64,000 bases of DNA from contig JAIXQD010000019.1 in NCBI GenBank assembly GCA_027485855.1, forward strand, positions 146,256 to 210,255. Direction: 5' to 3'. This document shows positions 9,520 to 56,600 of the stretch, piece by piece. The position numbers and the translations under genes were made by a program. The DNA comes from Rickettsiales bacterium (lineage in GTDB: Bacteria > Pseudomonadota > Alphaproteobacteria > G027485855). Position 1 is the stretch's first letter, and each line of letters begins with the position of its first letter. Below the pieces are notes generated by a model. The model made no database searches. It was given only the letters and a program-made list of their open reading frames with translations, and was not told the DNA's origin.

Positions 9520-10926
9520 TTACTCTCTCCGGTTGGTTTTGTCGCCCATTAGGTTTTTTAGCTGTGCAAGGTTGGCGCCGCCCCCGCCCAGCATGTTCAT
9601 AAGGCCGCCTAAACGGCCTGTTTTGCCCATTTTTTTAACTTGTTTCATCATATCGCGCATTTGCACATATTGTTTGAGCAAGCGATTAATTTCGGCAACA
9701 TCGGTGCCACTACCCAACGCCACGCGCCGTTTGCGCGAGGCATTGAGCAAATCGGGATTACGGCGCTCGGCTTTAGTCATGCTGCTGATAATTGCCTCTT
9801 GCCGCTGGATGATGTTGTTATCAACTTTGGCATCTTGCAGCTTTTGCTTCAGTGCGCCACCACCCGGCATAAAGCCCAGCATGCCCGACAAACCGCCCAT
9901 TTTGCGCATTTGCTTCAGCTGGCTGGCTAAATCATTGAGATCGAACTGGCCAGAAAGGGCTTTTTGCGTCAGCGCCTCGGCCTCGTCCTTGTCAATTTCC
10001 ATTGCGGCTTTCTCAACCAGCGCCACAACATCGCCCATGCCCAAAATACGATTAGCTAAACGCTGCGGATGATAAGCCTCGAGCGCATCCAGTTTTTCGC
10101 CCACACCCAAAAATTTTATTGGCCGCCCCGTGGCTGCGGTTAAGCTGAGTGCCGCGCCTGCCCGTGCATCGCCATCAAGCCTTGTGAGCACCAAGCCCGT
10201 CACGCCAACCGCCTCATGAAAACGCGTGGCCACGCCCAACGCATCTTGTCCGGTCATGGCATCAAGCACCAGTAATTGCTCATGCGGCTTGGCGAGCGCG
10301 CTAATGGCGCTGATTTCGTCCATCAGCTCAGTATCAATCGACAAGCGGCCGGCGCTATCAAGCAGCAGCACATCATAGCCGCCAAGCTGCGCCTCGCTGA
10401 CGGCGCGGGCGGTAATTTGCAATGGCGTTTGGCCAGCAATAATGGGCAGGCTATCAACGCCCACTTGCTGCGCCAATATGGCTAATTGCTCTTGTGCGGC
10501 GGGGCGGCGCGTATCAAGGCTGGCCAGCAAAACCTTTTTGCGCTCCAGCATGCTTAAACGGCGCGCCAACTTGCCGCTGGTGGTAGTTTTACCGCTGCCT
10601 TGCAAGCCCAGCATTAAAATAATCGATGGCGGCGTGGTGTTGAGTGTAAGCGGCACAGCGTCCGTGCCCAGCAGCGCCACCAAATTATCATGCACAATTT
10701 TAATGACTTGCTGCCCCGGCGTAATGCTGCGCAGCACCTCTTGCCCTATGGCGCGCTCTTTAACTTTGTCGATAAAATCTTTAACCACCGGCAAGGCGAC
10801 ATCGGCCTCAAGCAGGGCCACGCGCACCTCGCGCAGCGCATCGACGACATCGGCCTCGCTTAATGCGCCCTTGCGGGACAAACGGCTGAAAACGCCGGTG
10901 AGTTTCTGACTTAAACTTTCAAACAA
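9520..10926 (-). CDS. ffh: Signal recognition particle protein Ffh
   Basis: [11 protein letters not shown]alker A, DTRRPAA, DSAGR, and a Met-rich M domain. The likely start is TTG at 10926, giving (M)FESLSQKL, with GGAG about 10 nt upstream. The ORF track extends to 10950. Confidence 0.95.
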
Positions 10927-29731: not shown

Positions 29732-30004
29732 TTATTTTGCCTGATAATCATACCACCTGCGGATTCTTTGGTGCCGGTGTGCTGGTCGTCGTGCGCCCAA
29801 AAGCCGGCGTCGCACAGCCCGCCATGCGGCATCATAAGCAAGACCGTTTCGCTCGAATAAATAAAATAACAAAGTGCAGAGGCACGCAAAAATAAGAGTG
29901 TAAAGCCTTAAATGCAAAACCAGCAGCAAAAACGGCACGGCTGCGCGCGCATCAAAGCCCAAAAAGCGCACCGGTTTCATACTGTTGCGCCAATGAACAT
30001 CCAT
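29732..30004 (-). CDS. icmT: IcmT/TraK-family small membrane protein
   Basis: 90 aa: HWRNSMKPVRFLGFDARAAVPFLLLVLHLRLYTLIF...FERNGL. This matches the IcmT pattern. Located directly after dotB. Confidence 0.72.
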   Translation of the reverse strand: MDVHWRNSMKPVRFLGFDARAAVPFLLLVLHLRLYTLIFACLCTLLFYLFERNGLAYDAAWRAVRRRLLGARRPAHRHQRIRRWYDYQAK

Positions 30005-31179
30005 CAGTCTAACTCCGCCGAGAGGCCCTTGGATAACAGCAAATACCAGCGCCGCTCGATAAGCCCCTGCTCGAAGGCATTACGGGCGCTGCGCTCCATG
30101 GGGCAGCCCCAATCGGGCACAACGCGCTGAATTTCGTAGGTCCAGCGGTCGATGGGCATATCCAGCATTTTTTCGCGCAGGTTATCGTCAAAAACCATAT
30201 ATTCACGCAGGCCGATGCGCCCGCCACCAATTTTGGGCACCAAGGTTTGCGTCACTACCAAGCGCAAAGTTTCCATCAGCGCCATGGCGCGCTCAAGCCG
30301 CTCGGCTGGCTCAAACACCGAAATCATCCGCCGCACAGTTGCGGCAACGCCAATGGTGTGTGCGGTTGAATAAACTGTGTGGCCCGTTTGCGCGGCCTCA
30401 ATGGCGGCCGACACGGTTTCACGGTCGCGGGCCTCACCCACCATAATAATACTGGGCTTACGCCGCAAAGCATTGCGTACACCGGCAGCAAAATTGGGCA
30501 AATGGCGCGGGATTTCGCTTTGCGAAACAAGACTGCGCGGGCTGCTGATGCTGTCATAAACATATTCGATGGGGGCTTCGTAAGTCAGCAGCTTGCCGCA
30601 GCCTTGCGGGCGCTCAACCAACATACGACAGCCCGCGGCCAATAAAGTGGTTTTGCCGCTGCCCGTGGGCCCCGTGACTAAAACCAAACCTTGCCGTGGC
30701 GCCCAATTTTCGATGATGTCTTTTTCAATACCTAAATCCAATAAAGTGGGCGGCAGATTAGGCAAGGTGCGCAAGGTGACTTGCACAGCATCTCTGCCAC
30801 GCGACAACACCGCCGTGATATTCACCCGAAAGCGGATGCGCGTATTGCGGTCGGTTTTTATTTCGTAGGATAAATCAAGGTCGCGGCCCGAGGCCAGTTT
30901 GGCCAAAGCATCTGGCCCATAAAGCCGATTGAGCAAGGCGGCCATATCCGCACTATCGAGCGGGCGGCGTGTGCCAACCCGCAAGCCGCCATCAACTTCA
31001 ATCATGAGGGGGCGGTCTGACTGAATGTTGATATCGGAGGCGCGCTCGCGCACCGACCACAGCAACATACTATCAACGAGATCTTCGCGTAAACGCGGCG
31101 GCTCATCGGGCCAGAAAACGCCGGGCGCTGGCTCGATATCGAGGTCTTTTGGGTCTATTGTTGTGGGGCCGGCAGCCAA
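30004..31179 (-). CDS. dotB: DotB/TraJ-type (PilT-like) hexameric ATPase
   Basis: Has Walker A GPTGSGKTT, RFRVN, MVGEARDRET and STAHT. Follows the dotD-dotC-dotB synteny seen in Legionella and IncI plasmids. Confidence 0.85.
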   Translation of the reverse strand: MAAGPTTIDPKDLDIEPAPGVFWPDEPPRLREDLVDSMLLWSVRERASDINIQSDRPLMIEVDGGLRVGTRRPLDSADMAALLNRLYGPDALAKLASGRDLDLSYEIKTDRNTRIRFRVNITAVLSRGRDAVQVTLRTLPNLPPTLLDLGIEKDIIENWAPRQGLVLVTGPTGSGKTTLLAAGCRMLVERPQGCGKLLTYEAPIEYVYDSISSPRSLVSQSEIPRHLPNFAAGVRNALRRKPSIIMVGEARDRETVSAAIEAAQTGHTVYSTAHTIGVAATVRRMISVFEPAERLERAMALMETLRLVVTQTLVPKIGGGRIGLREYMVFDDNLREKMLDMPIDRWTYEIQRVVPDWGCPMERSARNAFEQGLIERRWYLLLSKGLSAELD

Positions 31180-32072
31180 CGCTCGCTCCGCGTGTTGAAT
31201 TGTGGCTGACCCGTGATGGTCACAGCGCGATCACCCACACGCATTTCAGTGCCATCACCCGACACGCCGCGCTCTTCTAACAGCGCAAAAGGCTCGCTAA
31301 TCATGCCTTGCTGCAATAATTCGCGGTAACGCACCATGCCGACAAAGTCGGCGGTCAAGCGGTCGAGATCGGCTTGAAAAACCTCATCGGCCTGAGTGCG
31401 GCCAGCTTCCCAGCCTTGGCGCAGATATTTTTGCCAAAGAATTTTTTCCTCGGCATTTTTGGGCAGCAATAAATCGGGCGGCGGCAAAACCTTACCCCAA
31501 TCGCGCTCTAAATAGAGACGCCAATCACGGGCGGCCGTGACAATACGCGCTTGCCGATTAATTTTAAGCACGCGCTCGGCCGTGGCTGCCGCTTGCCCGC
31601 CCGCTGTGACTAACACGGCACGCTGCGCCTCACTTACTACGGGCGGCTCAATGAGCAAGCCAGATGGCGCTTGCACCAAAAGCTGCCGAAAATCGAAGGT
31701 GCGGCTGAGCGCGCTATCTTGCTCGGCTAAGCGGCGCTGAATTTCGAAGGTGCGCAACGCCAAGCCAGCCCGTGCGCCATAAGATAAAGCGGCCTCGCGC
31801 AGGCCATCGGTGCGGATTTGCAAACCCATAGTGTTGCCAATCGTGCTTTCATCGGTGCCGCGGCGCTCAAGATTAAGCATATCAACCAGCGCAGGCGGTG
31901 GCGGTGAAGGCTCAACCACATTGGGCGTATCAAGAACATCTTGTGCCTGTGCCACCATGGGCGCGGCAAACAGTAAAGCCGCCAGCAGCAGCGCCAGAAT
32001 AGTTGGCTGCAGTTTTTTAGAGGCTGTTTTTGGCAACATAGCGAATTTCAATAGCATTGCGGTTGGGGTCAA
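31155..32072 (-). CDS. dotC: DotC/TraI(IncI)-family outer-membrane-associated protein
   Basis: About 300 aa with a signal peptide (LLAALLFAAPMVAQA). The call rests on size and its position between dotD and dotB. The true start is probably an internal Met (32057 or 32039). Confidence 0.7.
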   Translation of the reverse strand: MTPTAMLLKFAMLPKTASKKLQPTILALLLAALLFAAPMVAQAQDVLDTPNVVEPSPPPPALVDMLNLERRGTDESTIGNTMGLQIRTDGLREAALSYGARAGLALRTFEIQRRLAEQDSALSRTFDFRQLLVQAPSGLLIEPPVVSEAQRAVLVTAGGQAAATAERVLKINRQARIVTAARDWRLYLERDWGKVLPPPDLLLPKNAEEKILWQKYLRQGWEAGRTQADEVFQADLDRLTADFVGMVRYRELLQQGMISEPFALLEERGVSGDGTEMRVGDRAVTITGQPQFNTRSERWLPAPQQ

Positions 32073-32514
32073 CAGTGAGATCGCCCTGATTGGTTATCTG
32101 CAAGCCAACATCGCGCAAGACATGCACCAGCGGTTGCTCATAAGCATCGATATTGACCACCACCGGCACGGGCGGACGCGAGCCTAAAGTGCGATAGCTA
32201 TAGCCTGCGCGCATGGCCAATAACTCGGCAATTTGCTCGGCAGGCCCGCTCCAACGAATAGTTGTGGGCGTTTGCAAGGCGCTGGGCGCTGAAGCCACAT
32301 CATCAAAGGCGGTGGGCATGGGCGGCGTGCGGGTTTGCTCAACGCGCGAAATAGTTTGCAAGGCTGTCGCCGCTTTATTAGCGGCCTCTGCTATACGCAG
32401 CGACACCGAATCGGCCGCAGCCAAAGTGGGTGTGGGTGGCGGGCGACGCGCATTAGGATTGGCGCAAGCGACCAATGCTAATAACAGCGGCAGTAAAATA
32501 ATGTGGCGCATCAA
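32017..32514 (-). CDS. dotD: DotD/TraH(IncI)-family lipoprotein
   Basis: 165 aa with the lipobox LLALVAC. Size and position are typical of DotD. Confidence 0.72.
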   Translation of the reverse strand: MMRHIILLPLLLALVACANPNARRPPPTPTLAAADSVSLRIAEAANKAATALQTISRVEQTRTPPMPTAFDDVASAPSALQTPTTIRWSGPAEQIAELLAMRAGYSYRTLGSRPPVPVVVNIDAYEQPLVHVLRDVGLQITNQGDLTVDPNRNAIEIRYVAKNSL

Positions 32515-32934: not shown

Positions 32935-33867
32935 CTATTGAACTTTTACCGGTGGCGGCAAATCGGCAATGATTTGGCTGATTTGCTCGGGCACGCCATC
33001 AACCACTTTCACCACGCCTGCTCTATCGCGATAAACAATATAAGGCGTTGATGGCAGTTTCCACCGATCGAACAAAGCGCGATTAGAAATAACTTTTTGC
33101 AAACCGGGTAAGGGCGGGTTATCGGTGAGACCATCAAGCTTGCCATCGACAATGCGGTTCCAGCCGGCTTCTTTGTCGGCCATTTCAAGCCAATGGGCGG
33201 CAATATTGCGCGAGCGCTCGCCCAAAATATCCACCGGCACGAGGCGCAATTTCACGCTGCCCGCTTTCAGGTAAGGCTCGGCAAATTGCCCCCAAGCTTT
33301 TTTGCAGTGACGGCAGAGTGGGTCAACCACCATGGTCAGTTCTGGCGCATTGGCTTGGCCAATAGTCACGCCGTGCGCTGCCACGAGTTCGCGTAAAAGT
33401 TTTTCACCTGGCGAGACCGCCGCCGCACTCAGTTTTTGCTGACGCAACACATCGTCTTTGACTTGGCCGAAGGCATCTTGCATCTGGTTCATGCCTTGCT
33501 GAAACAAGGCCGCCACACGCGGGTCGCTATCGCGCAAGCGCTGCAATTGCTGGGCGGTGACCAGCTCGTCCTTATCGTTATAAAGCGCGCCATTCATCAG
33601 ACCGCGGCGGTCGGGCGTGGCGTAAAGGATTTGAATATTATCGTCGCGCTGCAATAAAAATCCGGGCATGCCATACTCATCGCCCAGATAAAAAACATTG
33701 GTGCCCGGCTGCACCATTTTTTCAATGAGCGCTTGGGCGGTGGGGTCGGGCTTGCCGAGTGCCGCGCCAGCCAAAGGGTTATCGGCCGTTTGTGCCATGG
33801 CCATAACCGGCAGCAAGAGGCCGAACAACAAAGCCAGAAAAGAAACGGGCAATAAACGCTTAACCAT
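32935..33867 (-). CDS. Periplasmic DsbC/TrbB-like thiol:disulfide interchange protein
   Basis: Has a signal peptide and the thioredoxin-fold CxxC motif VVDPLCRHCKKAW. Confidence 0.75.
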   Translation of the reverse strand: MVKRLLPVSFLALLFGLLLPVMAMAQTADNPLAGAALGKPDPTAQALIEKMVQPGTNVFYLGDEYGMPGFLLQRDDNIQILYATPDRRGLMNGALYNDKDELVTAQQLQRLRDSDPRVAALFQQGMNQMQDAFGQVKDDVLRQQKLSAAAVSPGEKLLRELVAAHGVTIGQANAPELTMVVDPLCRHCKKAWGQFAEPYLKAGSVKLRLVPVDILGERSRNIAAHWLEMADKEAGWNRIVDGKLDGLTDNPPLPGLQKVISNRALFDRWKLPSTPYIVYRDRAGVVKVVDGVPEQISQIIADLPPPVKVQ

Positions 33868-33899: not shown

Positions 33900-34394
33900 T
33901 TACCGCATCGCCAAAACTTGACCATTGACTGAACGCTCGGGCGCAATTTTGCTGACTGGCCCCACTGAAGTTGTTGGGGGGTAGTCTTTAATCAGCCCCT
34001 TGCGCTGCATGGCCAAAACAACCTTACGCGCATAGGCATAACCCAATTGTGGCGTGGCCGAATGGTAACGGGCAAAGCCGCCAAAAACCGAGCCGGTGCT
34101 TTTTATGTGCGTTTTCAAAATCCATGCCGCGACATGGGTATTGACGCATGGATCATCGCGCACCCAAGCCCGCGCGGTGCGCTCATCGACCTCCCACATT
34201 TTTGCAAGCTGCGGCAACCACACAGTGTTGATTTGCATGGGGCCTAAATCGTAGGTGCCGTTAGTATTAGGCCCCACCTCTTGCCCAACTCTGCCGCCCT
34301 CAACTTGATAAATGCCCACCAAATAGGCGGGCTCAAAGCTATAGAGCTGCGCTGCTGCAACAATACATGCCGCAAGTGTAGAGACAACGCCCAT
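33900..34394 (-). CDS. SLT-domain lytic transglycosylase (VirB1 / R64 PilT-like)
   Basis: Has IYQVEGGRVG (catalytic Glu context) and YDLGPMQINTVWL. Confidence 0.85.
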   Translation of the reverse strand: MGVVSTLAACIVAAAQLYSFEPAYLVGIYQVEGGRVGQEVGPNTNGTYDLGPMQINTVWLPQLAKMWEVDERTARAWVRDDPCVNTHVAAWILKTHIKSTGSVFGGFARYHSATPQLGYAYARKVVLAMQRKGLIKDYPPTTSVGPVSKIAPERSVNGQVLAMR

Positions 34395-34396
34395 GG

Positions 34397-35260
34397 CTAG
34401 CTTAACCCCGTATCATCAAGCTGGGCTGTGGCGGGCGGATCAACATAAGCCGCAAGCGTAGCCAGCATTGCCATGCGCTGATCAAATAATTGCCAGACAC
34501 GCTGCATCGGCACGACATTGCCATGCTGGGTGAAATAAGCCGCCCGCTCTTCTGGGTTCATATAGAGCAAGCGATCGGCCTCGGCATAATGGCTTTCAGT
34601 GTAGAGCTGGCCTGCGGCTTTTAAAAAACTATAGGCCAATGTCCGCCATTCGGCAGCAGAGCAACCGGCAGGCGCCAAGGCGCGGGTAAGTTGGTCGGTG
34701 GCCAGCACCAAACGCTCGGCAATGTCGGCAAGCAGGGCATGCTCTTGCCGGTTAAAGGCATATTGCGCAACTGCGCCCACCACCGGCGATAAAGCCTCAA
34801 GCATGCGCGCCCTAAAGGTGGCCAAACTATTGGCAGGCACATCATCATCGGCGCTGTGCAGCTGGGGTAATTTTTGCTCTAGCTTGAGCAGCAGGGCCAC
34901 GACAGCATCGGCCTCGGCCATCTCAAGCGGGCGGCCCGACGCACGATAATGTGCGGCAACGCATTGGCTGGCGGCACCCGTCACCGCCCAACGCGCCCAA
35001 TCATCGGCACCTTGACCAGACGCACCCAAATTTGCGGCAATGCTCTCGCTGAGTTGTGCAACACGATCGGCCAGCTCTTCAATGGTGTTGCTGGCATTGG
35101 CGATGGTAGCTTCATCTTGCCCGGCGGTGGGCGACACCTCACACACAGCGGCCAAGAGCGGCGCTGCCAGTTTTTGCAACATGGCCGTCAGCGCCCGCAG
35201 GCGCAGCGTGTCGGCCGAGATTGCGGTGTCTATATTTTGCGAGGGGGCGGGCGCGGTCAT
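34397..35260 (-). CDS. Hypothetical cytoplasmic protein
   Basis: 287 aa, helical and Ala/Leu-rich, with no signal peptide. No recognisable family. Confidence 0.45.
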   Translation of the reverse strand: MTAPAPSQNIDTAISADTLRLRALTAMLQKLAAPLLAAVCEVSPTAGQDEATIANASNTIEELADRVAQLSESIAANLGASGQGADDWARWAVTGAASQCVAAHYRASGRPLEMAEADAVVALLLKLEQKLPQLHSADDDVPANSLATFRARMLEALSPVVGAVAQYAFNRQEHALLADIAERLVLATDQLTRALAPAGCSAAEWRTLAYSFLKAAGQLYTESHYAEADRLLYMNPEERAAYFTQHGNVVPMQRVWQLFDQRMAMLATLAAYVDPPATAQLDDTGLS

Positions 35261-35266: not shown

Positions 35267-35836
35267 TTATCTTTTGTCTGGAATAAGGGGAGCAGTTGCA
35301 GGAGCTGGCACAGAAGAGGGTGTTGTGGCTTGTGGGGCACGCAAACGCGCCAGCTCTTTTTCGCTGCTACGATATTGGCACAAACCATAGCTAAGGCTGC
35401 CATTGCTGCCGCCTTGCTCATCGGCAGTGGCCGTATTGCAGGCCGCATCACGCGCCGCGACAAATTTATCAAAAGCCGCTTGTACGGCAGGGTCGATTTT
35501 TATGGCTGTGCCATCAGTGGGCTTTTGCTCGGTGGGTTTTTGCTGAGTGGGGCTGTGCATCGATTGCATCTGCGCTAACAGCACAGCATCAAGCTTGGCG
35601 CCTTCTTCGAAAATGCAATCGGTTTGGGCTAAAATATTTTCTAGCTGTTCGCAGCGGCTTAAATTGGGGGCTTTGCTATTGGCTGCCTCGGATGCTGCGG
35701 GTGCAGCCTTTGCGGCCACGGGCGCTGCTGTTTGCGAATGCGCCGGCAGCACAAAGGTCGCCGTGATAAGGCCAAATAAGGCCAAGGCGGTGATAAGCAA
35801 GCGCATGCGCATGATGCTCTTTTTTTGCTGTTGCAT
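35267..35836 (-). CDS. Periplasmic DUF1311/LprI-like protein; candidate immunity protein for the upstream lysozyme-like tail
   Basis: Has a signal peptide and a DUF1311-like Cys pattern: CEQLENILAQTDC...FVAARDAAC...GSNGSLSYGLC...ELARL. Its RBS AGGAGG lies inside the last codons of the upstream gene, with the ATG 3 nt after the stop. Confidence 0.55.
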   Translation of the reverse strand: MQQQKKSIMRMRLLITALALFGLITATFVLPAHSQTAAPVAAKAAPAASEAANSKAPNLSRCEQLENILAQTDCIFEEGAKLDAVLLAQMQSMHSPTQQKPTEQKPTDGTAIKIDPAVQAAFDKFVAARDAACNTATADEQGGSNGSLSYGLCQYRSSEKELARLRAPQATTPSSVPAPATAPLIPDKR

Positions 35837-35839: not shown

Positions 35840-38137
35840 TTAGCCTCCTGGTCTTGTTGGCGCTGCGGGTGCTGCAGCCGGACAGCTTGCCCGAACAATA
35901 TCCTCAATCTCGCGGGTGTAGCGCCCCTGACAGGCCGATGACCACCCACCTGTTGCCGCAGAGCAATACCCACCCCGCGAACGATACAATGCCCGCAATT
36001 GCGATTCAATGTCCATTGAGCGCCAATTGGGGTTTTCGCGCTCAAATTTGCTGAGCAAGGCGCCAACATTACCATGCTGCACGCCAATTGACCACATGGC
36101 CTGCTGCACACGAATATCATTCATATCCCAGCCACCCTGCCGGCGGAAATTATTAACGGCGTTACCGTAATTAACCCGCCTGATATATTCGTGCTGCATT
36201 TCGGCAAAATTGGGGTCGTTGATAGATTTCCATGCATTTTCAAAGGCGCGCCACGTTGTGGGGGTTGAGCCACGGCCATTATTGGGCGGCAAGAGCGGCT
36301 CAAGCCTTTGCCGAACCGGTGAATTGGCCGGAAGGCCCCGCACAAAAGCATGTACACTGCCCGCGGCGCCAGCCAATTGATAGCTCCCAAAAGACTTGCC
36401 GCCACGATCGCGCAAAGCCGCAGCATCGGAATTGACCGAGTTTGGATTGCCGTTCGATTCATAGCGAGCGGTAATCGTGCCAAGGCGGCATGCATCAATA
36501 GGTAAGCCACTGCCACTGCCCGGCCCCGTGAAGAAATCAAAGCCCTCGGGCACGCGCGCCAAAGCACCCAAAGCAAAATCGATATATTCGACATCAGCCA
36601 TCACGCCATTTTCGTCGGGCACATCAAAGACCGAGCCATAGCCTTTAGGCAAAGGCCGCTGCACGGGCTGTGCCCCCGCAGGTAAAACGGGATGCGGAAT
36701 ACGTTTTTTATCGGCCGACATCAGCGTGGCCTCAAGCAGCATGATTTGTTCAATCAGCTGGTTTTTGCGCCATTTAAGCTGATTAAGCGTGCCGAGGCTT
36801 TGATTGATATAACGCAATTTCACTGTGTCCGGCGCGGACGACGCGGCAATGTGCCACCTTGTGCTGAAACGCTCAGAAAACATCAATTCCATAATTTTAT
36901 GCTCGGACAACATCACATTATCCGGAATGGTATAGCCGGCTTCTTTCATCATGCCGCGCCCCCAAGTGAGAATACCCTCGGTGCTGCCGGCTTGGGGTGC
37001 CACCGGCATACGGCGCGCAATAATTTGCTGGCAGGTATAAAAAGCCAGCTGATTGCTGGCCTGCCAGCCACGCAATTTCATCAGATAGACCGGATTGGCG
37101 TTGGCTAAATTACCGCGCACCGGATCAAGCACGGTGGGCAGTACCACATTATCGCAATAAGCTTTGGCGGCCGCGCGCGCCCAGTCAGGCTGCTCGCCCG
37201 CCGCTTGCTGGCGCAAACGCAAAATATCATGCACCAGAATGGAGCGCGGATTTATATCCATATCGGGCAAAGCACCATTGATTTCTTTTGCATCAGCGCC
37301 ACGACAGCGCGGGTCTTGCGGGTTGGTGCTTTTACAATCTTGGAAAGAATGCATGCGGTCTTCGAAGCGCTTATTCACATCGGCCAACATGCCACGCGCT
37401 GCGGCAATTTCGCGCGCGGGCTGGCTAGAGCTAGATTGACCAGAGCTAGTTTGGCCAGAGCGAGACTGGCCTGCGGCGGGTGCTGCACCTGCCGGAGCTG
37501 CGGCCACTGCCGAAGCTGGATTTGCGCTAGCTGGGTTTGCAGATGCGCCACCCACTCTGCTAACGCCGCCACTATTGCCGCCACTATTGCCGCCACCCAG
37601 CGAGGCCGCCACTTGCTGCATACGCTCGGCGCTACTATCTTGCGTGCGATTAAGCAAACGATCTTCGGCTGACGCTGCCAGCAACGCTGCTTGCATTACG
37701 GTATTAGTTTCAACGGCGGCTAAATCGCGCTGGCCAGAGGCCACAACACAGCCTTGCCGACCCACATCGGGTGCAAATTTTTCGGCCACATCCATTTTGG
37801 CGCGGCGCTGTAAATTTTCGTATTTATTTTGAATTTCGGCGTTGGCAATTTTGCCCTTAACTTGTGCGCGCAATTGCTCGGCGGTGATATCGGCCGTAGC
37901 ACCCGCGCTTTTTAGATATTGCATTAAAGCCGCAAACACCGTTTGCAATATGGTGGCAACGCCGCCAATAGCCACACCGGTTGCCGCCATGGGAGCTGCG
38001 GCCGCATTACATTCGGCTTCAGCGGGGGGACATTGTACAACAGCCATCGACGCACGCACTGGCACAAGCACCAGCACGCCCGCCAAAATCATATGGCGAG
38101 TAAGCCTCATAATATTAAGCTTACGGCTTGATTGCAC
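35840..38137 (-). CDS. Paralogue A: shared N-domain plus a C-terminal lysozyme/SLT-superfamily-like domain
   Basis: GTG start with AAGGAG 5 nt upstream. Has a signal peptide, then a hydrophobic segment. The N-domain is very similar (by eye) to paralogue B. The C-terminal tail of about 221 aa (35843-36505) has ARYESNGNPNSVNS...GGKSFGSYQL, which resembles the E-S...N-P...G..G..Q pattern of SLT/VgrG3-type muramidases. Confidence 0.75.
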   Translation of the reverse strand: MQSSRKLNIMRLTRHMILAGVLVLVPVRASMAVVQCPPAEAECNAAAAPMAATGVAIGGVATILQTVFAALMQYLKSAGATADITAEQLRAQVKGKIANAEIQNKYENLQRRAKMDVAEKFAPDVGRQGCVVASGQRDLAAVETNTVMQAALLAASAEDRLLNRTQDSSAERMQQVAASLGGGNSGGNSGGVSRVGGASANPASANPASAVAAAPAGAAPAAGQSRSGQTSSGQSSSSQPAREIAAARGMLADVNKRFEDRMHSFQDCKSTNPQDPRCRGADAKEINGALPDMDINPRSILVHDILRLRQQAAGEQPDWARAAAKAYCDNVVLPTVLDPVRGNLANANPVYLMKLRGWQASNQLAFYTCQQIIARRMPVAPQAGSTEGILTWGRGMMKEAGYTIPDNVMLSEHKIMELMFSERFSTRWHIAASSAPDTVKLRYINQSLGTLNQLKWRKNQLIEQIMLLEATLMSADKKRIPHPVLPAGAQPVQRPLPKGYGSVFDVPDENGVMADVEYIDFALGALARVPEGFDFFTGPGSGSGLPIDACRLGTITARYESNGNPNSVNSDAAALRDRGGKSFGSYQLAGAAGSVHAFVRGLPANSPVRQRLEPLLPPNNGRGSTPTTWRAFENAWKSINDPNFAEMQHEYIRRVNYGNAVNNFRRQGGWDMNDIRVQQAMWSIGVQHGNVGALLSKFERENPNWRSMDIESQLRALYRSRGGYCSAATGGWSSACQGRYTREIEDIVRASCPAAAPAAPTRPGG

Positions 38138-38163: not shown

Positions 38164-38547
38164 CTACTGTGTTAATTTATCAAATAACTTAAGTGCGGTT
38201 TCTCGCGGCACGCCATTGCTACGCAAAACGCTTTCGCTGGGCACGCCGCCATCAAAATACAGCACCGACCATTTGCCCTTATCTTGCTTAAGTACAAATG
38301 GACCCGCCGACACTTCGTCCTGCCAATAGCCCGATACATAAGGCGGCACCGAGCGGCTAACACTAATTTCCATGCCGGCAACCTTACCGGGATTAAGCAA
38401 GCCCTCGGCCACGGCTTGCATTTTTTGGTCGGCCGCTTCAACACCCGCTGGTAATTTTGCCGGCGCGCTTTGGGCGGCATTACCGATGCCAAACACCGTT
38501 AAAACCAAAACCAAGAACGAGCCAAAAAAGATGCGCTTATGTTTCAT
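38164..38547 (-). CDS. Small periplasmic protein; candidate immunity protein for the upstream CHAP tail
   Basis: 127 aa with the signal peptide MKHKRIFFGSFLVLVLTVFGIGNAAQS. The ATG lies 8 nt after the upstream stop, with a GGTAGGAGA RBS. Confidence 0.5.
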   Translation of the reverse strand: MKHKRIFFGSFLVLVLTVFGIGNAAQSAPAKLPAGVEAADQKMQAVAEGLLNPGKVAGMEISVSRSVPPYVSGYWQDEVSAGPFVLKQDKGKWSVLYFDGGVPSESVLRSNGVPRETALKLFDKLTQ

Positions 38548-38555
38548 AGTGTCTC

Positions 38556-40541
38556 CTACCCACGGGGCCGATAAATTTGTGTGGCACCACCAAACCTGTT
38601 AAAATAGCCATTACGTGCCAAGCCCACATTGGCACCGCGCCCATTATTATTATAGGCCAGCGTGCAGCCCACATTGGCGCAAATGCCCACATGGCTATAC
38701 ATACGGCCGCCCACCACACCACGTATCATCACAATATCGCCGGGCTGCGCTTGTCCGGGGCTGACGCGTGTGCCACCGCCACTTTGTAAATAATTCTGCA
38801 TGCCGGCCACGCTGAGCGTGCCACCGGGAGGAATCATGCTGCGCCCCGATGCGGCCAGCAAATAATTGACATATTGGGCGCAGCCAAGGTTGCCCGTATA
38901 GGCAGGGCCGCACACCACCGCACCATTACGGCCGCTGGTGCAGTTAGTCGCATCGGCATAGCCACCCGGAATGGGCCGCCCCACTAAAGATTGCGCAAGC
39001 GCCATAAGATCGTTGCTGACAACTTGAATGCCAGATAGGCCGCCGCCGCCCTCGGCAACATCGCCGCCCGTGCCATCAAAATCAATATTATCGCCTTGCA
39101 GTTCGGCAAAAGAGGCTTCGGCTAAATCAAAATCGACATAGCGCACATCGTCGTTCACGCCATCCGCATTGACATCTAAATCAAGAATCTCGCCAACACC
39201 CGTGGGCAGCGGTAAGCTGGTGGGAGTTGCACCTGGCGCTAATTGTGGCAGTGGTATTTTGTTTTTATCGCTGGATAAAATGCTCGCTTCGAGCAGGCCA
39301 AGTTGCTCAAGCAGTTCGTGCTTGCGCCATTTCAGCTGATTATAAGTGCCAAATGTTTGGCTGATATAACGCAGTTTTACACTGTCAGGGGCGCTGGCGG
39401 CGGCGATATTCCAGCTGGTGCTGAAGCGCTCACGAAACAGCAATTCCATAATTTTATGCTCGGACAACACAGCATCGGCCGGAATATCATAGCCAAATTC
39501 TTGCATCAGCGCCTTGCCCCAGTTCAGCGGGCTTGCAGCATTGCCGCCCGCTTCGGCCGAAATGGGCATGCGCCGTGCGGCAATCTGCGCGCAAACATGC
39601 CCCGCCAGCTGTTTGGCCGCCTGCCAGCCGCGCAGTTTCATCATGTAAACCGGATTGGCGTTGGCCAAATTGCCCCGCACCGGATCCAGCGTGACGGGCA
39701 ATATCACATTTTCGCAATAGGTGAGCGCGGCCAGCTTGGCCCAATCGGGCTCGCTTGGGTTTTGATAGCGCAGGCGCAAAATATCGTGCGTTAAAATAGT
39801 GCGCGGCATAATATCAAAATCGGCCAAGGCACCATCGGTGCATTCAGTGTTTTTGGGGTCGGTGTTTTTACAATTTTGGAAATTGAGCATGCGTTTTTCA
39901 AAGCGCTCATTCACATCGGCCAGCATGCCACGCGCGGCGGCCACCTCGGCGCAGGCACTGTCATTATCGGCTGCCGCCGGAATATCAAGCCCCAATAAAC
40001 GAGCCGTTTGGCGCAAGCGCTCATGCGCCGAGCCGCAATCACGATTAACCAGGCGGTCTTCGACCGCAGCTTCAATCGGCACGGCTTGCAGCGCCGAGTT
40101 ATTTTCGGCCGCCATCAGCGCTTGCTGACCCGAGGCCGCAACACAGCTTTGCCGGCCAACATCCGGCGTGAAATTTTGCGCAACCTGCATTTTGGCTTCG
40201 CGCTGCATGTTTTCGTAACTTGCCTGATTTTCGGCATTGGCGATTTTTGCACTGACTTGCGCACTGAGCTGCTGCGCCGATACTTCGGCCGTGCTGCCCG
40301 CGCTTTCTAAAAACTGCATAATAGCCACAAAGGCTGCTTGAATGGCTGTGGCCACCGCAGTCAAAGCGCCACCCACAGCAACAGTGGGTGCAATGGCCGC
40401 AGCACAACCAGGGCAAGTATCCATCGCGGCGCTGGCCTGTGCGGCGCGCGGCGGCAGGGCCAGCCCCACCACCAACAGCAACGCCATCACGCCAAAACGG
40501 CAGCGCGCCATACGAGTACCTGCGCCAGCAAGAGACAGCAT
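38556..40541 (-). CDS. Paralogue B: shared N-domain plus a C-terminal CHAP/NlpC-P60-like domain
   Basis: ATG at 40541 has AAGGAGG 8 nt upstream. The ORF-track start at 40712 would overlap paralogue C. The C-terminal 150 aa (38559-39008) has GCAQYVNYLL (Cys nucleophile context) and GDIVMIRG...YSHVGIC (His), which is a CHAP/NlpC-P60 arrangement. Confidence 0.75.
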   Translation of the reverse strand: MLSLAGAGTRMARCRFGVMALLLVVGLALPPRAAQASAAMDTCPGCAAAIAPTVAVGGALTAVATAIQAAFVAIMQFLESAGSTAEVSAQQLSAQVSAKIANAENQASYENMQREAKMQVAQNFTPDVGRQSCVAASGQQALMAAENNSALQAVPIEAAVEDRLVNRDCGSAHERLRQTARLLGLDIPAAADNDSACAEVAAARGMLADVNERFEKRMLNFQNCKNTDPKNTECTDGALADFDIMPRTILTHDILRLRYQNPSEPDWAKLAALTYCENVILPVTLDPVRGNLANANPVYMMKLRGWQAAKQLAGHVCAQIAARRMPISAEAGGNAASPLNWGKALMQEFGYDIPADAVLSEHKIMELLFRERFSTSWNIAAASAPDSVKLRYISQTFGTYNQLKWRKHELLEQLGLLEASILSSDKNKIPLPQLAPGATPTSLPLPTGVGEILDLDVNADGVNDDVRYVDFDLAEASFAELQGDNIDFDGTGGDVAEGGGGLSGIQVVSNDLMALAQSLVGRPIPGGYADATNCTSGRNGAVVCGPAYTGNLGCAQYVNYLLAASGRSMIPPGGTLSVAGMQNYLQSGGGTRVSPGQAQPGDIVMIRGVVGGRMYSHVGICANVGCTLAYNNNGRGANVGLARNGYFNRFGGATQIYRPRG

Positions 40542-40560
40542 TGATAAGTGCCTCCTTTGC

Positions 40561-41820
40561 TTATTTTTCCCACGGCGCTTTCGCCGATGTGGGCGTGGCA
40601 CCCGCGGGCAAGACCGGCGGATTATCCTGCAACACAGCCGAAAGCTGCGCTGCACGCAACATAGCCAAACGCTCGAGCATTTCATATTCGCGCCACTCTT
40701 GCTGCGAGACAAACGCCAAAGACTGGTTGATAGAGGTCAGCATGTCTTTCGGTTCGCTATTGGCGTAAAAGGCCACATCCTTGAAAATATCGTAGTAAAG
40801 CGTGCGCAAAATATCTTGCTCTGAAGCATTTTCCGGCACGGTGCGGCCAACACGGGCGGCAATGGTTTTGCCCCATTCAAGCCTGCTGGTATCAACTGGT
40901 GCGCCACCGCGCGTCACTTCGTTGGCGGGCGTGCGCGTGGTCATTATGTCAAGGCAGACGAGATCGACCAAGCTGAGGCGCGCATCCACACCACGACGCT
41001 GCATGTGATAGACCCGACCTTGCGGGCTATTCAGCAACTGGCCCGTGACGGGATCAGGCACAACGGGGTCTTTGATGTGGCTACAAAAAAGCTGAGCTGC
41101 GCCCACATGGCCATCATCGCCCGAGCCCAAATTATCGGACAGCAGAATATCGGCGCGAATATCGGTGTTTCTCTTGTTGGGGTCATCTTGGCAGCGTGGA
41201 TTTTTGGGGTCAACCTGATCGCAATCAAGATAGCCGCCCTTGGCCAAAGCGACCACACTGGCCGACGCATCGGCCTGCGTGCCGCGCTGGGCGGGGCCTG
41301 CAGCATTAGTGCTGCGCTTTAATGCATTGCCACGAGCCACACTGGCTAAAAAGCGCGTATTGGCTGCCGCTGCTGTTGCCGCTTGCGCACCCGATGCGCG
41401 CACGCACGCATCTTTATTGGTGGATGGGGCATATTGCTGCGCCACCCGCATTTTGGCTTCGCGCTGCAGATTTTCAAAATCATTCTGAATTTTGGCATTG
41501 GCTATTTTAGCGTCAATTTGTGCTTGCAACTGCACCGCCGAAACTTTGGCCGTGCTGCCCGCGCTGGTGATAAAACTGAGCATCAGCTGCATAGCAGTGA
41601 TAGCGGCAGTTAACACGCCTGTGACCGCAGCACCAACAGCCGTAACCGCGCCCACCAACGCTTGCGCTTGTGCCACTTGCGGCGTGCCAAACAACAAAGC
41701 ACCCGCCAGCAACAAAGTGGCCGCGCCCCTGCCTAAAGACCCCAAGGGATTTTTTCGCGGATTTTTTTGCGGATTTTGCCGCCGATTTTGCCCCGCGCTA
41801 TTTTGCATAAGCTGGTGCAT
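40561..41820 (-). CDS. Paralogue C: the shared N-domain only, with no enzymatic tail
   Basis: 419 aa. Aligns by eye with A and B: SAGSTAKVSAVQLQAQIDAKIANAKIQNDFENLQREAKMRVAQ matches SAG[AS]TA[DE][IV][ST]A[EQ]QL..QV..KIANAE.QN.YEN[LM]QR.AKM.VA. Ends just after the shared LPAGATP junction. Confidence 0.7.
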   Translation of the reverse strand: MHQLMQNSAGQNRRQNPQKNPRKNPLGSLGRGAATLLLAGALLFGTPQVAQAQALVGAVTAVGAAVTGVLTAAITAMQLMLSFITSAGSTAKVSAVQLQAQIDAKIANAKIQNDFENLQREAKMRVAQQYAPSTNKDACVRASGAQAATAAAANTRFLASVARGNALKRSTNAAGPAQRGTQADASASVVALAKGGYLDCDQVDPKNPRCQDDPNKRNTDIRADILLSDNLGSGDDGHVGAAQLFCSHIKDPVVPDPVTGQLLNSPQGRVYHMQRRGVDARLSLVDLVCLDIMTTRTPANEVTRGGAPVDTSRLEWGKTIAARVGRTVPENASEQDILRTLYYDIFKDVAFYANSEPKDMLTSINQSLAFVSQQEWREYEMLERLAMLRAAQLSAVLQDNPPVLPAGATPTSAKAPWEK

Positions 41821-42890
41821 TAGTTACCCCCTCGCGGCGCAAAGGGCGAGGTTATACCCGGCACCCGTGTTGTGCCTATCTCCTTATCGGTATCTCTCGT
41901 GCGGAACTGGAAGGTCACGCCACGCGAAGGCATATTGGCATTGCGTGCTTCAAGGCTGCGTGGGTCCATAATATCTTGTGCCGAAAGATCGACGCCAAAA
42001 ATGCGCGCCCCACGGAACAGGCCGCTAATATCGCCGCCATCACGCAGCGGCGCCCAGCCATCACAGAAACCACCATGCACATTACCGAGCTGATTAAGGT
42101 CAGGGCCGATATTGAGAAAATCTAACCCAGGAATGCAAATTGAATTGGCGATAAAATCAACCGCCATTTGAAGGGCCTGACAGGCCGCATTAATGACCGC
42201 ATCAATGATTTGTTTGAAAATCATATCGGCCAGCGCGCGCACTAAACCCAGCGGGTCGCTCAAAATTTTAATGAGGTCGAAAGCCGCAAACATTTTCACG
42301 AGGCAAAAGCGGTCTTCGATTTTTCGGGGGCCCTCGCCTAAGGCGTTCATATTGGCCGCCAAGGCGTTGGTGGCTTGCGCTTCGCTGCCGGCGACAATGG
42401 CATCTTGAATAGGGTCTAAGCAATCTTCGGTGGACATGGCTTTTGCAGCGGCATTGCCATAATCGGTTGCGGCCTTATTGGCTTTATCGCTGCCAGGCAC
42501 ACCTGGCACTGGCCCCGAACCTGTCATTTGTGCGGCAGCTTTATCAAGCGCGCTGCTCAGCTCTTTGGGGTTGGTTACTTCGCTGGCTGTTGGCACGGGC
42601 GATGGGTCGGGGTCGGTTGTGCCCGTATTGCCGCCCGTATTGCCACCCGTGTTACCAGTTGTGGTAATATTTGCCGTACCGCGCGAATTACCGGTTGTTA
42701 TGCCATCAGCAATAAAAGGCGGCTCATCCGCAGGATTCACCGGAACCCGCGGATTAGATATAACTGGCGCTGCAGGTGCGGCAACGCCGCCACCAATCAC
42801 TCGGTCTGGTGTGGCAATAGCAGGCGAGATCCCAAATACAAATAACGCGCAGAGCAACGCAAAGGTCAGAATAAATGAGCGTAGCAACAT
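41820..42890 (-). CDS. Secreted ORFan with a G/N/T-rich linker and a Cys-containing helical C-domain
   Basis: Start chosen at MLLRSFILTFALLCALFVFG (GGAGAGG RBS). Its stop overlaps the paralogue C start (TAATG). Confidence 0.55.
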   Translation of the reverse strand: MLLRSFILTFALLCALFVFGISPAIATPDRVIGGGVAAPAAPVISNPRVPVNPADEPPFIADGITTGNSRGTANITTTGNTGGNTGGNTGTTDPDPSPVPTASEVTNPKELSSALDKAAAQMTGSGPVPGVPGSDKANKAATDYGNAAAKAMSTEDCLDPIQDAIVAGSEAQATNALAANMNALGEGPRKIEDRFCLVKMFAAFDLIKILSDPLGLVRALADMIFKQIIDAVINAACQALQMAVDFIANSICIPGLDFLNIGPDLNQLGNVHGGFCDGWAPLRDGGDISGLFRGARIFGVDLSAQDIMDPRSLEARNANMPSRGVTFQFRTRDTDKEIGTTRVPGITSPFAPRGGN

Positions 42891-43025
42891 GGGCCTCTCC
42901 CGATTCTTCACACGATTCTTCACACAATTATTCATTGGCGCGCGAAATTTAAACATTTAGCCTTACATTTATGGCTGATTATGCTTAAAGCAACCTTAAT
43001 TGTTTTGCAGCCGTTTTTATACAGC

Positions 43026-53683: not shown

Positions 53684-56600
53684 TTACCAACCGAAGATAT
53701 TCCAATTAAACCCAGTGTTTGTGTTGGTGTTGCTATTGGAATTGCTGACATTGACGTTGGTGTTATCACCTACGACCGTGTTGCTGTTGGTGTTGGTATT
53801 GCTGACATTGACGTTGGTGTTGCCACCCACGACCGTGTTGCTGTTGCTGTTAGTATTGTTAACGGTGTTGATATTGGAGTTCGTATTGCTATTGGTATTC
53901 GAGCTCGTACTGGTGTTCGAGTTGGTGTTCGTGTTGGTGTTGGTGTTGGTATTCGTATTCATGGGCACGCAAGCGCTGCTGGTGATTTCCCAGTCGCTAT
54001 TGTTACCACACTGACCGCCACGATTGACCACACGCTGCTCAGTCACGCTGCCAACCATACCGTTGGGGCAGGCGCCAAAGCCAGAGCGGGCGCGCACTTC
54101 AGTGCTTTGCACGCAAACCGGTGCGCAAGTGTTGCTGGTCACCGTCCAGTTGCCATTCACGCCACACTGATTGCCCACATTGGTGCTGCGGGTTTCAGTG
54201 ATGGTGCCAGCCTGACCCGAAGGGCAAGGCGTGCTGTTGCGTGTTTCGCTCCCTTCGTTGCAAATCTGCGCGCAGGTGTTGCTGGTGACAGCCCACTCGC
54301 CATTGACACCGCACTGGTTATTGACATTAACCGTGCGACGCTCGCTGATGGTGCCAGCCTGACCAGACGGACATTGCGTGCTGTTGCGGTTTTCGTTGGC
54401 CTGTGCACAGACAATGGGGAAGCGCACATCATCGCAATCACGCTCATTGAAAGCGTTGTTGCCGCAGATGCTATAGCCGCAACCAGCCACATGGACCGAG
54501 ATGGCGACATTGCGTGACTGACCATTATACAAACCATTCAGCGCATTGCTACCAAAGGGGTTGGCCGGGCAATAGCTGGGGCTGTTTGGCGTACGCGTGA
54601 CATCGGTGCTGGTAGTGGGGCCTCTGCCGCCTTCAACAACCAGCAGAACACCCGTGCTGGTAGGCGTGCCTGTGCTTACGGTGTAAGGCGCGGGCTGACC
54701 ACCAAAGACCAGGTCATCGCACGCTGTTTCATTAACCAATGCTAGCGATGTGCCTTGTGGGCCTTCGGCAGATTGTGATGAATGCGGCTCAGCCCAGGCC
54801 ACGCGGTTGGTGACGCAGATTGTGTATGCACAGCCATTGCCACCGCTGCTTACTGCATCAGTTTTGTTGGCGCCTTTCCACAAGCCATTCCAATAGGCAA
54901 GCGGGAATTCGGTCAAAGCTGGTGCGTTGGCAATGATACCGCCGACATTAAAGGGATCGGCGCTGCAATAAGCAGGGTTGTTGTTTGCAGGAACAATCGA
55001 AGCGCCTGTCACCTGACCGCGGTTGCCCGTGATGGTTACAGTGACTGTACCATTATTGCCGGTGGGTGTGCCAACATCAATACCAAGCGGCACGGCCACA
55101 ATAATGGGGGTGCAGGTGTTGGCTGTGACTGTCCACTCACCATTCACGTTGCACTGATTACCCACATTAGTCGTGCGCGTTTCAGTGATGGTGCCAGACT
55201 GACCTGATGGGCAAGGCGTGCTGGTGCGTGTTTCGCTGCCTTGGGTGCAAACCGGGGCGCAGGTGTTGCTGACCACGGCCCACTCACCATTGACGTTGCA
55301 CTGGTTATTAACATTAACCGTACGACGTTCAGTGATGGTGCCAGCCTGACCAGACGGACATTGCGTGCTGGTGCGATCTTCTGTGGCTTGTGCACAGCTA
55401 ATCGGGAAGGTGACTTGGTCGCAATCCGTCTCATCAAATGCGGTGCTGCCGCAAATGTTGTAACTGCACCCGGCGACATGCATCCACACAGGGATATTGC
55501 GTGATTGGCCGTTATACAAACCGTTCAGCGCCGTGCTGCCAAATGGATCGGCGGGGCAATAGCTGGGACTGTTGGGCACGCGTGATACAGCGGTGCTGGT
55601 GGTGGGGCCTCTGCCGCCGCCAACAGTAACCGGAACATTGCTACCCGTGGGTGTGCCAACATCGACCGAGTAAGGCACAGGTGCCGGTGGGAATGCTAAT
55701 GGCCCGCATGATTGCTCGCCCGCATCATTGCTGACACAAACGGCATACACGCAACCCGCAAGGCCGCCAACTGTTGAACTGCTATTCACCGTGGTGCAGA
55801 CACCATTGTTACAATTGGTGCTGGTGGTGTTGATAACCTGCACTGGCGTATTCACAGTCAATGTGCGGCTTTGGTCTTTCCACAGGCCATTCAATGCATT
55901 CAAGGGGAATGGGTTGAATGGGCAAGTGCTGGGGCTATCGCTACGCAGCGCATAAGAGCTGTTGGTAACGGGGCCAATGTCGCCTTTCACATTAAAGGGT
56001 ACCGTTGAACCAGGCTGATAACCGCTGGGTGTGCCCACAGTCAGTCGCAGCGGATCGGTTGGCACGGGGGTGCAAGTGTTGCTCACCGGCGTCCAAGCGC
56101 TGTTGACACCACATTGCGAACCAACATTGGTGGTACGACGCTCGGTCACAGTGCCTTGCTGGCCTGCGGGGCAAGCATCGGTGCGCACGCGCTCTTCGCT
56201 GCCTTCACGGCAAGTTCTGGCGGTGAGCAAATTATCGCAGGCGCGCTCTTGGGCGGTGTTGGTCACGCACACCCAGTAGTTACATGTGCCGATATTCGCA
56301 TTAAGGTTGGTGACACGGCTGGCGCCATTCCACAGACCTTGCAAGGCGCTGGTCGCACCATTGACAAAGGGCTCGGCGGGGCAATCGGCAGGCTCACCAA
56401 AGAAGCGCTCAACCGTAGCTGAGGTCACTGGGTTACGGCCACCGCCAACAGTGGCGGGCACTGTGCGGCCGCTGCCATTATCGTTGGTGGGTGTACCCAG
56501 GTCTAAAGTGAGCGGTGCGGGCGAACCAGGGAAGGACAGCGTATCGCAATCTTCCTGATTTTGGGCGTTGGTGACGCAGGTGCGATAGACGCAGCCGGCC

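Follow-up and report, generated by a model that had tools for sequence, protein, structure and literature searches.

In the evolved spikes of type VI secretion systems (T6SSs), a tip protein carries a peptidoglycan hydrolase at its C terminus (V. cholerae VgrG3-TsiV3; see also Tae/Tai, Tse1-Tsi1). The gene for a small periplasmic protein lies directly 3', and a plain tip paralogue coexists. Type IV secretion systems (T4SSs) have wall hydrolases of their own, among them VirB1, CwlT of ICEBs1, PrgK of pCF10, TraG of pIP501, and the Tn916 Orf14-type proteins. The T4SSs of Xanthomonas and Stenotrophomonas deliver wall hydrolases (X-Tfe) whose genes adjoin periplasmic immunity genes (X-Tfi) (PMC6759196). 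Here we describe, from computational analysis, a locus of an uncultured Rickettsiales bacterium (GenBank assembly GCA_027485855.1, contig JAIXQD010000019.1) that resembles each of these systems in part. The window, which is the whole stretch of DNA that was analyzed, is 64 kb long. It encodes a protein assigned by profile comparison to the TraW/IcmX/VirB5 class of tip proteins. That protein ends in a predicted NlpC/P60-type hydrolase, and the next gene encodes a 127-amino-acid (127-aa) exported protein, here called the partner. A hydrolase of this type and a small exported protein form a conserved two-gene module, and the pair in the window is a typical copy.

The locus shares all three features of the evolved T6SS spikes. 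In addition, the tail of a 765-aa sister protein matches the C-terminal family of VgrG3 itself. The carrier differs. It is a Sec-exported protein of the type IVB secretion system (T4BSS) TraW/IcmX/VirB5 class, and the window contains no T6SS genes. Unlike the Tae/Tai pairs, the tail falls outside Tae1-4 by the tests run, and the partner belongs to a new family. With the T4SS wall hydrolases the locus shares a type IV secretion gene string and the combination of an NlpC/P60-CHAP peptidase with a glycosidase activity. Those hydrolases are separate or membrane-anchored proteins, whereas here they are fusions to a stalk-tip protein, with each activity on a paralogous carrier of its own. We know of no dedicated downstream partner for VirB1, CwlT, PrgK, TraG of pIP501, or the Tn916 Orf14-type hydrolases. 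The X-Tfe/X-Tfi pairs are similar in combining type IV secretion, wall hydrolases, and adjacent genes for periplasmic proteins. They differ in belonging to a type IVA system and in being cytoplasmic substrates that use a C-terminal XVIPCD signal and the coupling protein, not Sec-exported structural fusions. VirB5, TraW (IncI R64), and IcmX are related to the carrier by profile-profile homology over about 300 columns, by gene position on related plasmids, and by an architecture of helices around a variable middle. Known members are about 380 to 470 aa long and have no enzyme domain, whereas the window has three tandem copies with no DotA beside them. A search of the full-text literature for type IVB systems in interbacterial killing returned only work on type IVA systems, T6SSs, and type VII secretion systems.

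The logic of the locus matches that of the evolved T6SS spikes, Tae/Tai, the T4SS-associated hydrolases, and the X-T4SS pairs, and it is not a new category. What is new is the fusion of wall hydrolases to a TraW/IcmX/VirB5-class protein, for which no other tailed member was found in the collections searched. The array of three tandem tip-protein paralogues with different tails is also new, as is the unannotated partner family.

The hydrolase and its 127-aa partner

The genes concerned are all on the minus strand. They form one tightly packed string that runs from about 43.6 kb to 18.5 kb of the window. The hydrolase and partner genes contain the following features.

38556-40541, minus strand: gene for the fusion of TraW-like scaffold and NlpC/P60 tail (661 aa, protein P0001; gene caller's start 40541)
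38556-40712, minus strand: the mechanical large open reading frame (ORF), 718 aa; its upstream part overlaps the preceding gene
39177-40541, minus strand: P0001 residues 1-455, signal peptide and predicted TraW/IcmX/VirB5-class scaffold (from hhalign and synteny)
39027-39176, minus strand: acidic Asp/Gly-rich linker from scaffold to tail (from the alignment with the paralogue)
38559-39026, minus strand: P0001 residues 506-661, predicted C-terminal cysteine peptidoglycan hydrolase domain of NlpC/P60-CHAP type
38880-38882, minus strand: codon of the predicted nucleophile Cys (C554 of P0001, C611 of the 718-aa ORF)
38691-38693, minus strand: codon of the predicted catalytic His (H617 of P0001, H674 of the 718-aa ORF)
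38646-38648, minus strand: codon of the invariant Asn (N632 of P0001), likely the third catalytic residue
38548-38555, minus strand: 8-nt spacer from the hydrolase gene stop to the ATG of the 127-aa gene
38164-38547, minus strand: 127-aa partner gene, ATG at 38547
38473-38547, minus strand: residues 1-25, Sec signal peptide of the 127-aa protein, read from the sequence (MKHKRIFFGSFLVLVLTVFGIGNA/AQS)
38173-38340, minus strand: residues 70-125, conserved partner domain of the 127-aa protein (from the partner-family profile)

Residue numbers of P0001 become those of the 718-aa ORF by adding 57. An alternative start of the fusion gene at 40511 places its Met directly before a clear signal peptide. 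The stop codon is a TAG at 38556-38558. It is overlapped by a GGAGA Shine-Dalgarno sequence at 38552-38556, the ribosome-binding site of the 127-aa gene. The two genes are probably cotranscribed and translationally coupled. The order of tail gene, 8-nt gap, and 127-aa gene had been given in a preliminary description of the DNA, and the coordinates, the gap, and the signal peptide were read here in the same way on the minus strand. Both genes, with identical proteins, were also present on an independent Logan contig (L001). The locus was seen in freshwater and aquatic metagenomes of three studies, with one base difference and otherwise identical.

In the scaffold part of P0001, a variable middle separates a hydrophobic N-terminal helix from helices at the C-terminal end. 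The first part of the linker (G.G...D....GV..DV.Y.DF.L) is common to P0001 and the 765-aa paralogue. Word depth in one metagenome run was about 308 over 39010-39323, which includes the Asp/Gly-rich linker, and about 9 elsewhere. This peak is probably due to unrelated low-complexity or repeat-like sequence of other organisms mapping there.

The tail is an intact cysteine hydrolase of NlpC/P60-CHAP type with a papain-like fold, as judged from profiles and a model. The last 159 residues of P0001, scanned alone against Pfam, matched CHAP (1.4e-4), NLPC_P60 (2e-3), and DUF6950 (4e-3) over the same stretch. Searches of a word index of 5.8 billion proteins, made with the tail, with the whole of P0001, and with the 127-aa protein, returned only the window's own proteins. 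About 83 relatives of the tail were retrieved when 1.84 billion representatives were scanned in full with HMMER. The domain was at the extreme C terminus in every relative, in proteins of 107 to 1,110 aa. CHAP was matched by 19 of the 83 and NLPC_P60 by 7 (E<=1e-3). Cys554 and His617 were each kept in 82/83 relatives and Asn632 in 83/83, and all three are present in the window protein. Gly601-Asp602 and the pair Cys621/Cys626 are also near-invariant, and the window protein has them all. The Cys in GCAQYVNYLL and the His in YSHVGIC, which the preliminary description had named, are exactly the two residues kept in 82 of the relatives.

A profile of 39 relatives searched against the PDB matched Lys2972 (1.3e-6), CwlO (2e-6), and Spr/MepS (2-3e-4). 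It also matched many further NlpC/P60 structures, including hydrolases of Tn916-like conjugative elements. In the alignments the tail Cys pairs with the Cys of Lys2972, and the tail His with the HVG motif found in CwlO, Spr, and Lys2972. Single-sequence PDB searches of tail, scaffold, and partner were empty or gave noise. From the tail sequence alone, AlphaFold2 (AF2) gave a poor model (pLDDT 48), which was replaced by an alignment-based one (pLDDT 80.4, pTM 0.78). In the alignment-based model the Cys is at the N terminus of a helix (tail residues 53-64), and a beta-sheet follows that Cys-headed helix. The best Foldseek match was the NlpC/P60 DL-endopeptidase 4xcm (probability 1.0, TM 0.50). 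Further matches were the CHAP domains of LysGH15 and LysK, NlpC/P60 3h41, and other clan-CA peptidases, with modest E values (1e-3). Pfam, the 39-relative profile at 1e-6, and the model with its Foldseek matches confirm the earlier assignment of a CHAP/NlpC-P60-like tail. The predicted activity is cleavage of peptidoglycan peptide stems. Two additional cysteines are present in an insert of the window tail. These and a DsbG-like gene in the operon fit a periplasmic or extracellular enzyme.

Two other origins of the tail were considered and rejected. The top PDB match, Lys2972, suggested a phage endolysin, but the tail is a C-terminal module of exported proteins without phage context. Membership of T6SS Tae1-4 or a T6SS origin was rejected since there was no Tae in the sequence matches and no T6SS gene was seen in the window. 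Tae4 appeared at rank 4 only (E 0.86), with the low-confidence single-sequence model.

The 127-aa protein had no accepted match in the word index, Pfam, NCBIfam, or the PDB. An NCBIfam match to a copper-uptake-associated protein (E 0.0019, 18 bits versus a cutoff of 50) and a PDB match to CpdB (E 0.037) were rejected as shared beta-hairpins, not homology. The protein had been described as an ORFan; it is a member of a conserved, unannotated family. Directly 3' of distant tail relatives there is repeatedly a gene for a protein of 130 to 206 aa that has a hydrophobic segment at its N terminus and a common motif at its C terminus. The motif is Y-A-x-x-x-W ... G-G ... W-x-h-h ... G-G ... G-V-P ... 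A-x-x-L, and it corresponds to residues 70-125 of the window protein. It was found downstream of five distant tail relatives, in a more divergent version after P0018. BLASTP E values for three partner pairs tested were 2e-5, 2e-4, and 6e-6.

The partner-motif profile was searched in 80 metagenome loci with the hydrolase family. The partner domain was immediately downstream on the same strand in 57 of the 71 assessable loci. It started 208 to 529 nt past the end of the tail match. The remaining 23 of the 80 loci comprised 9 with too little contig and 14 with room but no match. No partner domain was found elsewhere among the 4,443 six-frame segments of the 80 loci. A profile of 58 sequences from which the window protein was left out matched the 127-aa ORF at E 3.6e-11, and the next best of the 838 window segments had an E value of 0.71. 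The median gap between hydrolase and partner genes across the family was 6 nt. An N-terminal hydrophobic segment for export or anchoring was present in 56/57 partners. By analogy, the partner family is probably a protective inhibitor of this enzyme type in very different bacteria.

Of the 83 relatives, 28 have an N-terminal T4SS_pilin domain and 5 an N-terminal TrbC/VirB2 domain; a GH19 domain is present in 10. The closest relative, P0006, consists of GH19 and the tail and is 51% identical to P0001 in the tail. Its gene lies between a coupling-protein gene and a partner gene, in a cluster that also has TrbI/VirB10. The P0014 gene is a few genes downstream of a relaxase gene, and that of P0018 adjoins VirB2/B3/B4-like genes. 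The partner-bearing relatives in conjugative T4SS clusters are cyanobacterial-type by our reading. In a subgroup of the candidate phyla radiation (CPR) type, the module is in a conserved chromosomal neighborhood with ClpB, MiaA, and ParB, where other VirB2-like pilin genes are often found as well. One pilin array (L007, positions 5896-9525, GCA_043774825.1) encodes a T4SS_pilin-like protein with an SLT-like domain, two small membrane proteins, a T4SS_pilin protein with NlpC/P60, and the partner. It has the same duo of glycosidase and peptidase as the two window tails, on VirB2-like pilins instead of TraW. A preprint on Patescibacteria T4SSs describes such pilin arrays, and a term search of it gave no mention of a hydrolase (10.1101/2025.01.22.634366).

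The TraW-like carrier, its paralogues, and the surrounding island

The carrier scaffold of P0001 is a T4BSS stalk or pilus tip protein of the TraW/IcmX/VirB5 class, as judged from sequence profiles and gene order. Comparison by hhalign of the window scaffold family with an Acetobacter plasmid protein gave 98.2%. A 12-member scaffold profile compared with a 5-member IncI TraW profile gave 99.0% over 305 columns. The value was 98.0% without the most divergent TraW (Janthinobacterium) and 96.7% with alphaproteobacterial members only. Negative controls gave 0.3 to 0.8%. Direct comparison of the scaffold with R64 TraW alone gave 1.4%. The scaffold profile matched no solved structure and no Pfam family. 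No scaffold relatives were found in 185,579 species genomes. Four untailed relatives were found among the metagenome proteins (1.84 billion representatives), on contigs too short for context.

Homologues of the scaffold were retrieved by tblastn from MPF_I conjugative plasmids of Acetobacter. Through the Acetobacter protein, they were found on 132 plasmids of Acetobacteraceae, Roseomonas, methanotrophs, Bosea, and Acinetobacter (including pAB3). The plasmid homologues examined were untailed and 377 to 396 aa long. In Acetobacter, Methylocapsa, and Roseomonas the gene is two genes upstream of DotA/TraY, which is the position of traW in R64. No other tailed member of the TraW family was found in the 1.84 billion representatives or in 72,556 plasmids. 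R64 TraW corresponds to IcmX and VirB5, a pentamer of the stalk or pilus, and TraY corresponds to DotA and VirB6 (PMC12624023, a 2025 review). IcmX is at the tip of the central channel and forms a cap over the DotA channel on the central axis. Behind a signal peptide, its N- and C-terminal helices flank a variable middle (PMC12501162). The machine releases IcmX in a truncated form (10.1101/312009).

An unannotated TraW-family homologue labeled "hypothetical protein" is also found on the large conjugative plasmids of Acinetobacter (75 records). On a plasmid of A. baumannii ATCC 17978 (NZ_CP033111.1, apparently pAB3; L095, positions 5352-7615), it follows a hypothetical gene of similar size. The MPF_I genes around this homologue are almost wholly unannotated.

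The window contains three tandem TraW-like paralogues, which have an N-terminal module of about 440 aa in common. The other two paralogues and the gene after the second are as follows.

40561-41820, minus strand: plain TraW-like paralogue, 419 aa, no enzyme tail
35840-38137, minus strand: TraW-like paralogue with a VgrG3-like lysozyme tail, 765-aa ORF (likely start 38110)
35267-35836, minus strand: 189-aa secreted protein, 3 nt past the lysozyme-tailed paralogue, weakly DUF1311/LprI-like

The two tailed paralogues are 45 to 88% identical up to about residue 445, then 10 to 35% where the tails begin. The common carrier scaffold noted in the preliminary description, which left its class unnamed, is thus present in both pairs. 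The same description held that the arrangement is repeated with an unrelated enzyme, and the tails are indeed unrelated, one an NlpC/P60 domain and the other VgrG3-like. The tail of the 765-aa paralogue matched the VgrG3-like C-terminal lysozyme family PF21277 of Pfam at 2e-20. The 189-aa protein is weakly like lysozyme inhibitors (LprI 1.3e-3, below the cutoff; DUF1311 structure 3gi7, E 0.18).

Two neighboring genes encode proteins of interest. A 378-aa secreted protein with a GNTGGNTGGNTG repeat is encoded directly upstream of the three TraW-like genes (41820-42956, minus strand). It has a very weak (8-bit) likeness to an Acetobacter plasmid protein in the TraV position. A 287-aa protein without signal peptide or family match is encoded between the DUF1311-like and lytic transglycosylase genes (34397-35260, minus strand). 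The gaps flanking its gene are 6 and 2 nt.

All of these genes are part of a 25-kb island (18546-43613, minus strand). It contains a type IVb pilus operon, DotD/C/B, the DsbG-like gene, a lytic transglycosylase gene, and the three TraW-like genes. The remaining secretion genes are as follows.

30004-32514, minus strand: homologues of the T4BSS outer-membrane lipoproteins DotD and DotC and of the ATPase DotB, part of this gene string
32935-33867, minus strand: DsbG/TrbB-like disulfide isomerase
33900-34394, minus strand: TrbN/PilT(R64)-like lytic transglycosylase

The matches were 6e-121 for DotB, 5e-29 for DotD, and 8e-49 for DotC, the last to TraI/DotC of an Acetobacter plasmid. The type IVb pilus operon is complete, with a TcpQ/PilL-like protein, secretin, PilO, ATPase, platform protein, PilS pilin, and PilV-like minor pilin. 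The PilV-like minor pilin (18546-19916, minus strand) has an N-terminal methylation motif and ends in a Peptidase_S74 chaperone domain (1.9e-15). This intramolecular-chaperone domain is of the phage tail spike or fiber type and is unusual as the tip of a type IVb pilus. On its flanks the island has flagellar genes and housekeeping genes, the latter including ffh, trmD, GAPDH, and an AptA-type aminotransferase. By our reading the organism is an alphaproteobacterium. A 1,613-aa ORF is at 53684-58525 on the minus strand. Either a T4BSS has been split and the island is one half of it, or the island is a reduced hybrid system; the missing T4BSS genes may be elsewhere on the 306-kb contig.

Proposed function and alternative explanations

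We propose that the NlpC/P60 hydrolase of the two-gene module has been grafted onto the C terminus of a TraW-family protein. The fusion would be exported by Sec to the periplasm, where its disulfides would form, with two extra Cys pairs available and possibly with the product of the DsbG-like gene in the operon. The partner, made together with it, would be exported to the same compartment, bind the hydrolase domain, and shield the producer's own wall. The TraW-like part would be built into the T4BSS tip or released from it, so that the enzyme reaches the envelope of a contacted cell. In a contacted cell without the partner, the enzyme would cut the peptide stems of the peptidoglycan. The sister paralogue would deliver a lysozyme-type glycosidase in the same way, with an inhibitor-like gene just downstream. 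From enzymatic activity through inhibition by the partner to delivery by the T4BSS and action on another cell, these are steps that we infer. A trans-acting hydrolase on a T4BSS tip protein, neutralized in the producer periplasm by its partner, is a tentative reading to which we give a little less than an even chance. Action in trans is indicated by the putative inhibitor in the producer periplasm and by the lytic transglycosylase that the operon already has.

The locus is weapon-like in that a plain paralogue is next to two with wall-degrading tails, the tails are unrelated, and each tailed gene is followed by one for a small exported protein. We lean slightly toward antagonism, that is, killing, over mere facilitation of entry. 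Killing is favored by the array of paralogues and by the sister pair, whose tail is of VgrG3 type and whose partner is inhibitor-like. The conjugative context of the nearest relatives, and a glycosidase and peptidase duo as in conjugation hydrolases, argue for opening of the wall in transfer or attachment. The preliminary description had favored modular effector-immunity cassettes over chance adjacency. Chance adjacency does not fit the partner in 57 of 71 loci and in no other position, and the tails are modular; the immunity and weapon part of that claim is an extrapolation from these facts. The wider statement would be that a T4BSS of the Dot/Icm-IncI class serves as an interbacterial weapon through evolved tip proteins, TraW/IcmX/VirB5 paralogues that bring swappable peptidoglycan-degrading warheads into the periplasm of contacted cells as a T4BSS counterpart of evolved VgrG spikes, and that the 127-aa protein founds a new family of NlpC/P60 inhibitors that spans phyla. 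We consider that statement doubtful.

Several observations weigh against a trans-acting weapon. The tail is under the Pfam gathering scores (CHAP 22.8 bits versus 26, NLPC_P60 18.4 versus 23). The window and metagenome scaffold sequences alone reached only 6.6% against enteric TraW, and the link to TraW is transitive through plasmid intermediates. The 64-kb window has only DotB, DotC, and DotD besides a type IVb pilus, and no DotA/TraY, DotG/H, DotO, coupling protein, or relaxase gene was found in it. The nearest tail relatives are wall hydrolases in conjugative T4SS clusters, a context that does not require a weapon, and neither does the CPR housekeeping context with ClpB, MiaA, and ParB. No variants of the tail cassette between strains were seen in the contigs of the three metagenome studies, at low depth. 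The partner-family profile matched nothing in Pfam or among solved structures, and with no known fold or motif the term inhibitor rests on analogy and on the logic of compartments.

An alternative is that the tails belong to a machine-associated wall hydrolase and not to a weapon. The endopeptidase and lysozyme tails would supply the glycosidase and peptidase activities with which conjugation systems pierce peptidoglycan, as CwlT, PrgK, and TraG of pIP501 do. Tethering to TraW would confine them to the machine, and the partner, as a regulator or inhibitor, would limit collateral damage. We hold this to be somewhat unlikely. P0006, P0014, and P0018, which are GH19-NlpC/P60 proteins or large hydrolases, are in clusters with TrbI, coupling protein, relaxase, or VirB4, and 33/83 tail relatives are fused to VirB2-type pilins. 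Tn916-like conjugative-element hydrolases are among the PDB matches, a CPR pilin array encodes both a pilin with an SLT-like domain and a pilin with NlpC/P60, and the partner goes with the enzyme even in housekeeping contexts. All of this suits a hydrolase that serves the machine. However, the operon already has a dedicated lytic transglycosylase, and to our knowledge the T4SSs of diderm bacteria normally use only such nonlethal enzymes. A coexported inhibitor argues against the producer's own wall as the substrate, and the plain TraW copy beside two tailed ones is as seen with specialized T6SS spikes. A separate question is whether the 127-aa protein is an inhibitor at all. It could be an accessory factor, such as an activator, a wall-binding or targeting subunit, or a helper of export or folding, and we judge this improbable. 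The strict 1:1 pairing across phyla with very short gaps would fit an obligate subunit equally well. The 80 loci contain no orphan partner copies, which differs from many immunity genes, and the partner resembles none of the known immunity families. Yet the gene in the same position of the sister pair weakly resembles a lysozyme-inhibitor family, and small exported proteins encoded just 3' of exported wall hydrolases are typically inhibitors, as in the T6SS Tae/Tai and Tge/Tgi pairs.

The last alternative concerns the machine. The island may be a decayed or rearranged IncI-like remnant, or the proteins may take the route of TcpF and CofJ and leave the cell through the neighboring type IVb pilus, with the TraW part as a mere carrier. 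The island of 25 kb is without DotA/TraY or other core T4BSS genes and is situated between housekeeping and flagellar genes, and the complete type IVb pilus operon is next on the same strand. We nevertheless regard this as very improbable. No ORF is disrupted, the catalytic residues are kept, the genes are tightly coupled and have ribosome-binding sites, and the locus is nearly identical in the metagenomes of three studies. Legionella splits its dot/icm genes over two regions, and the missing genes may likewise lie elsewhere.

Significance of the tip fusions and the partner family

The assignment of IcmX, TraW, and VirB5 to the tip of the type IV channel is recent. That wall-cutting enzymes occur naturally fused to such a protein suggests that the tip reaches the wall of the target cell. 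If the enzymes of the trans-acting reading kill, the locus would be the first hint of delivery of antibacterial toxins by a type IVB system. The route, fusion to a structural component, has so far been known from the T6SS.

The partner is an unannotated family tied to one NlpC/P60 subfamily. It is found in Patescibacteria, in relatives within conjugative T4SS clusters, and in this proteobacterium. It bears on how episymbiotic CPR bacteria handle wall hydrolases fused to pilins. If the partner inhibits the enzyme, it would represent a new mode of control for NlpC/P60 hydrolases.

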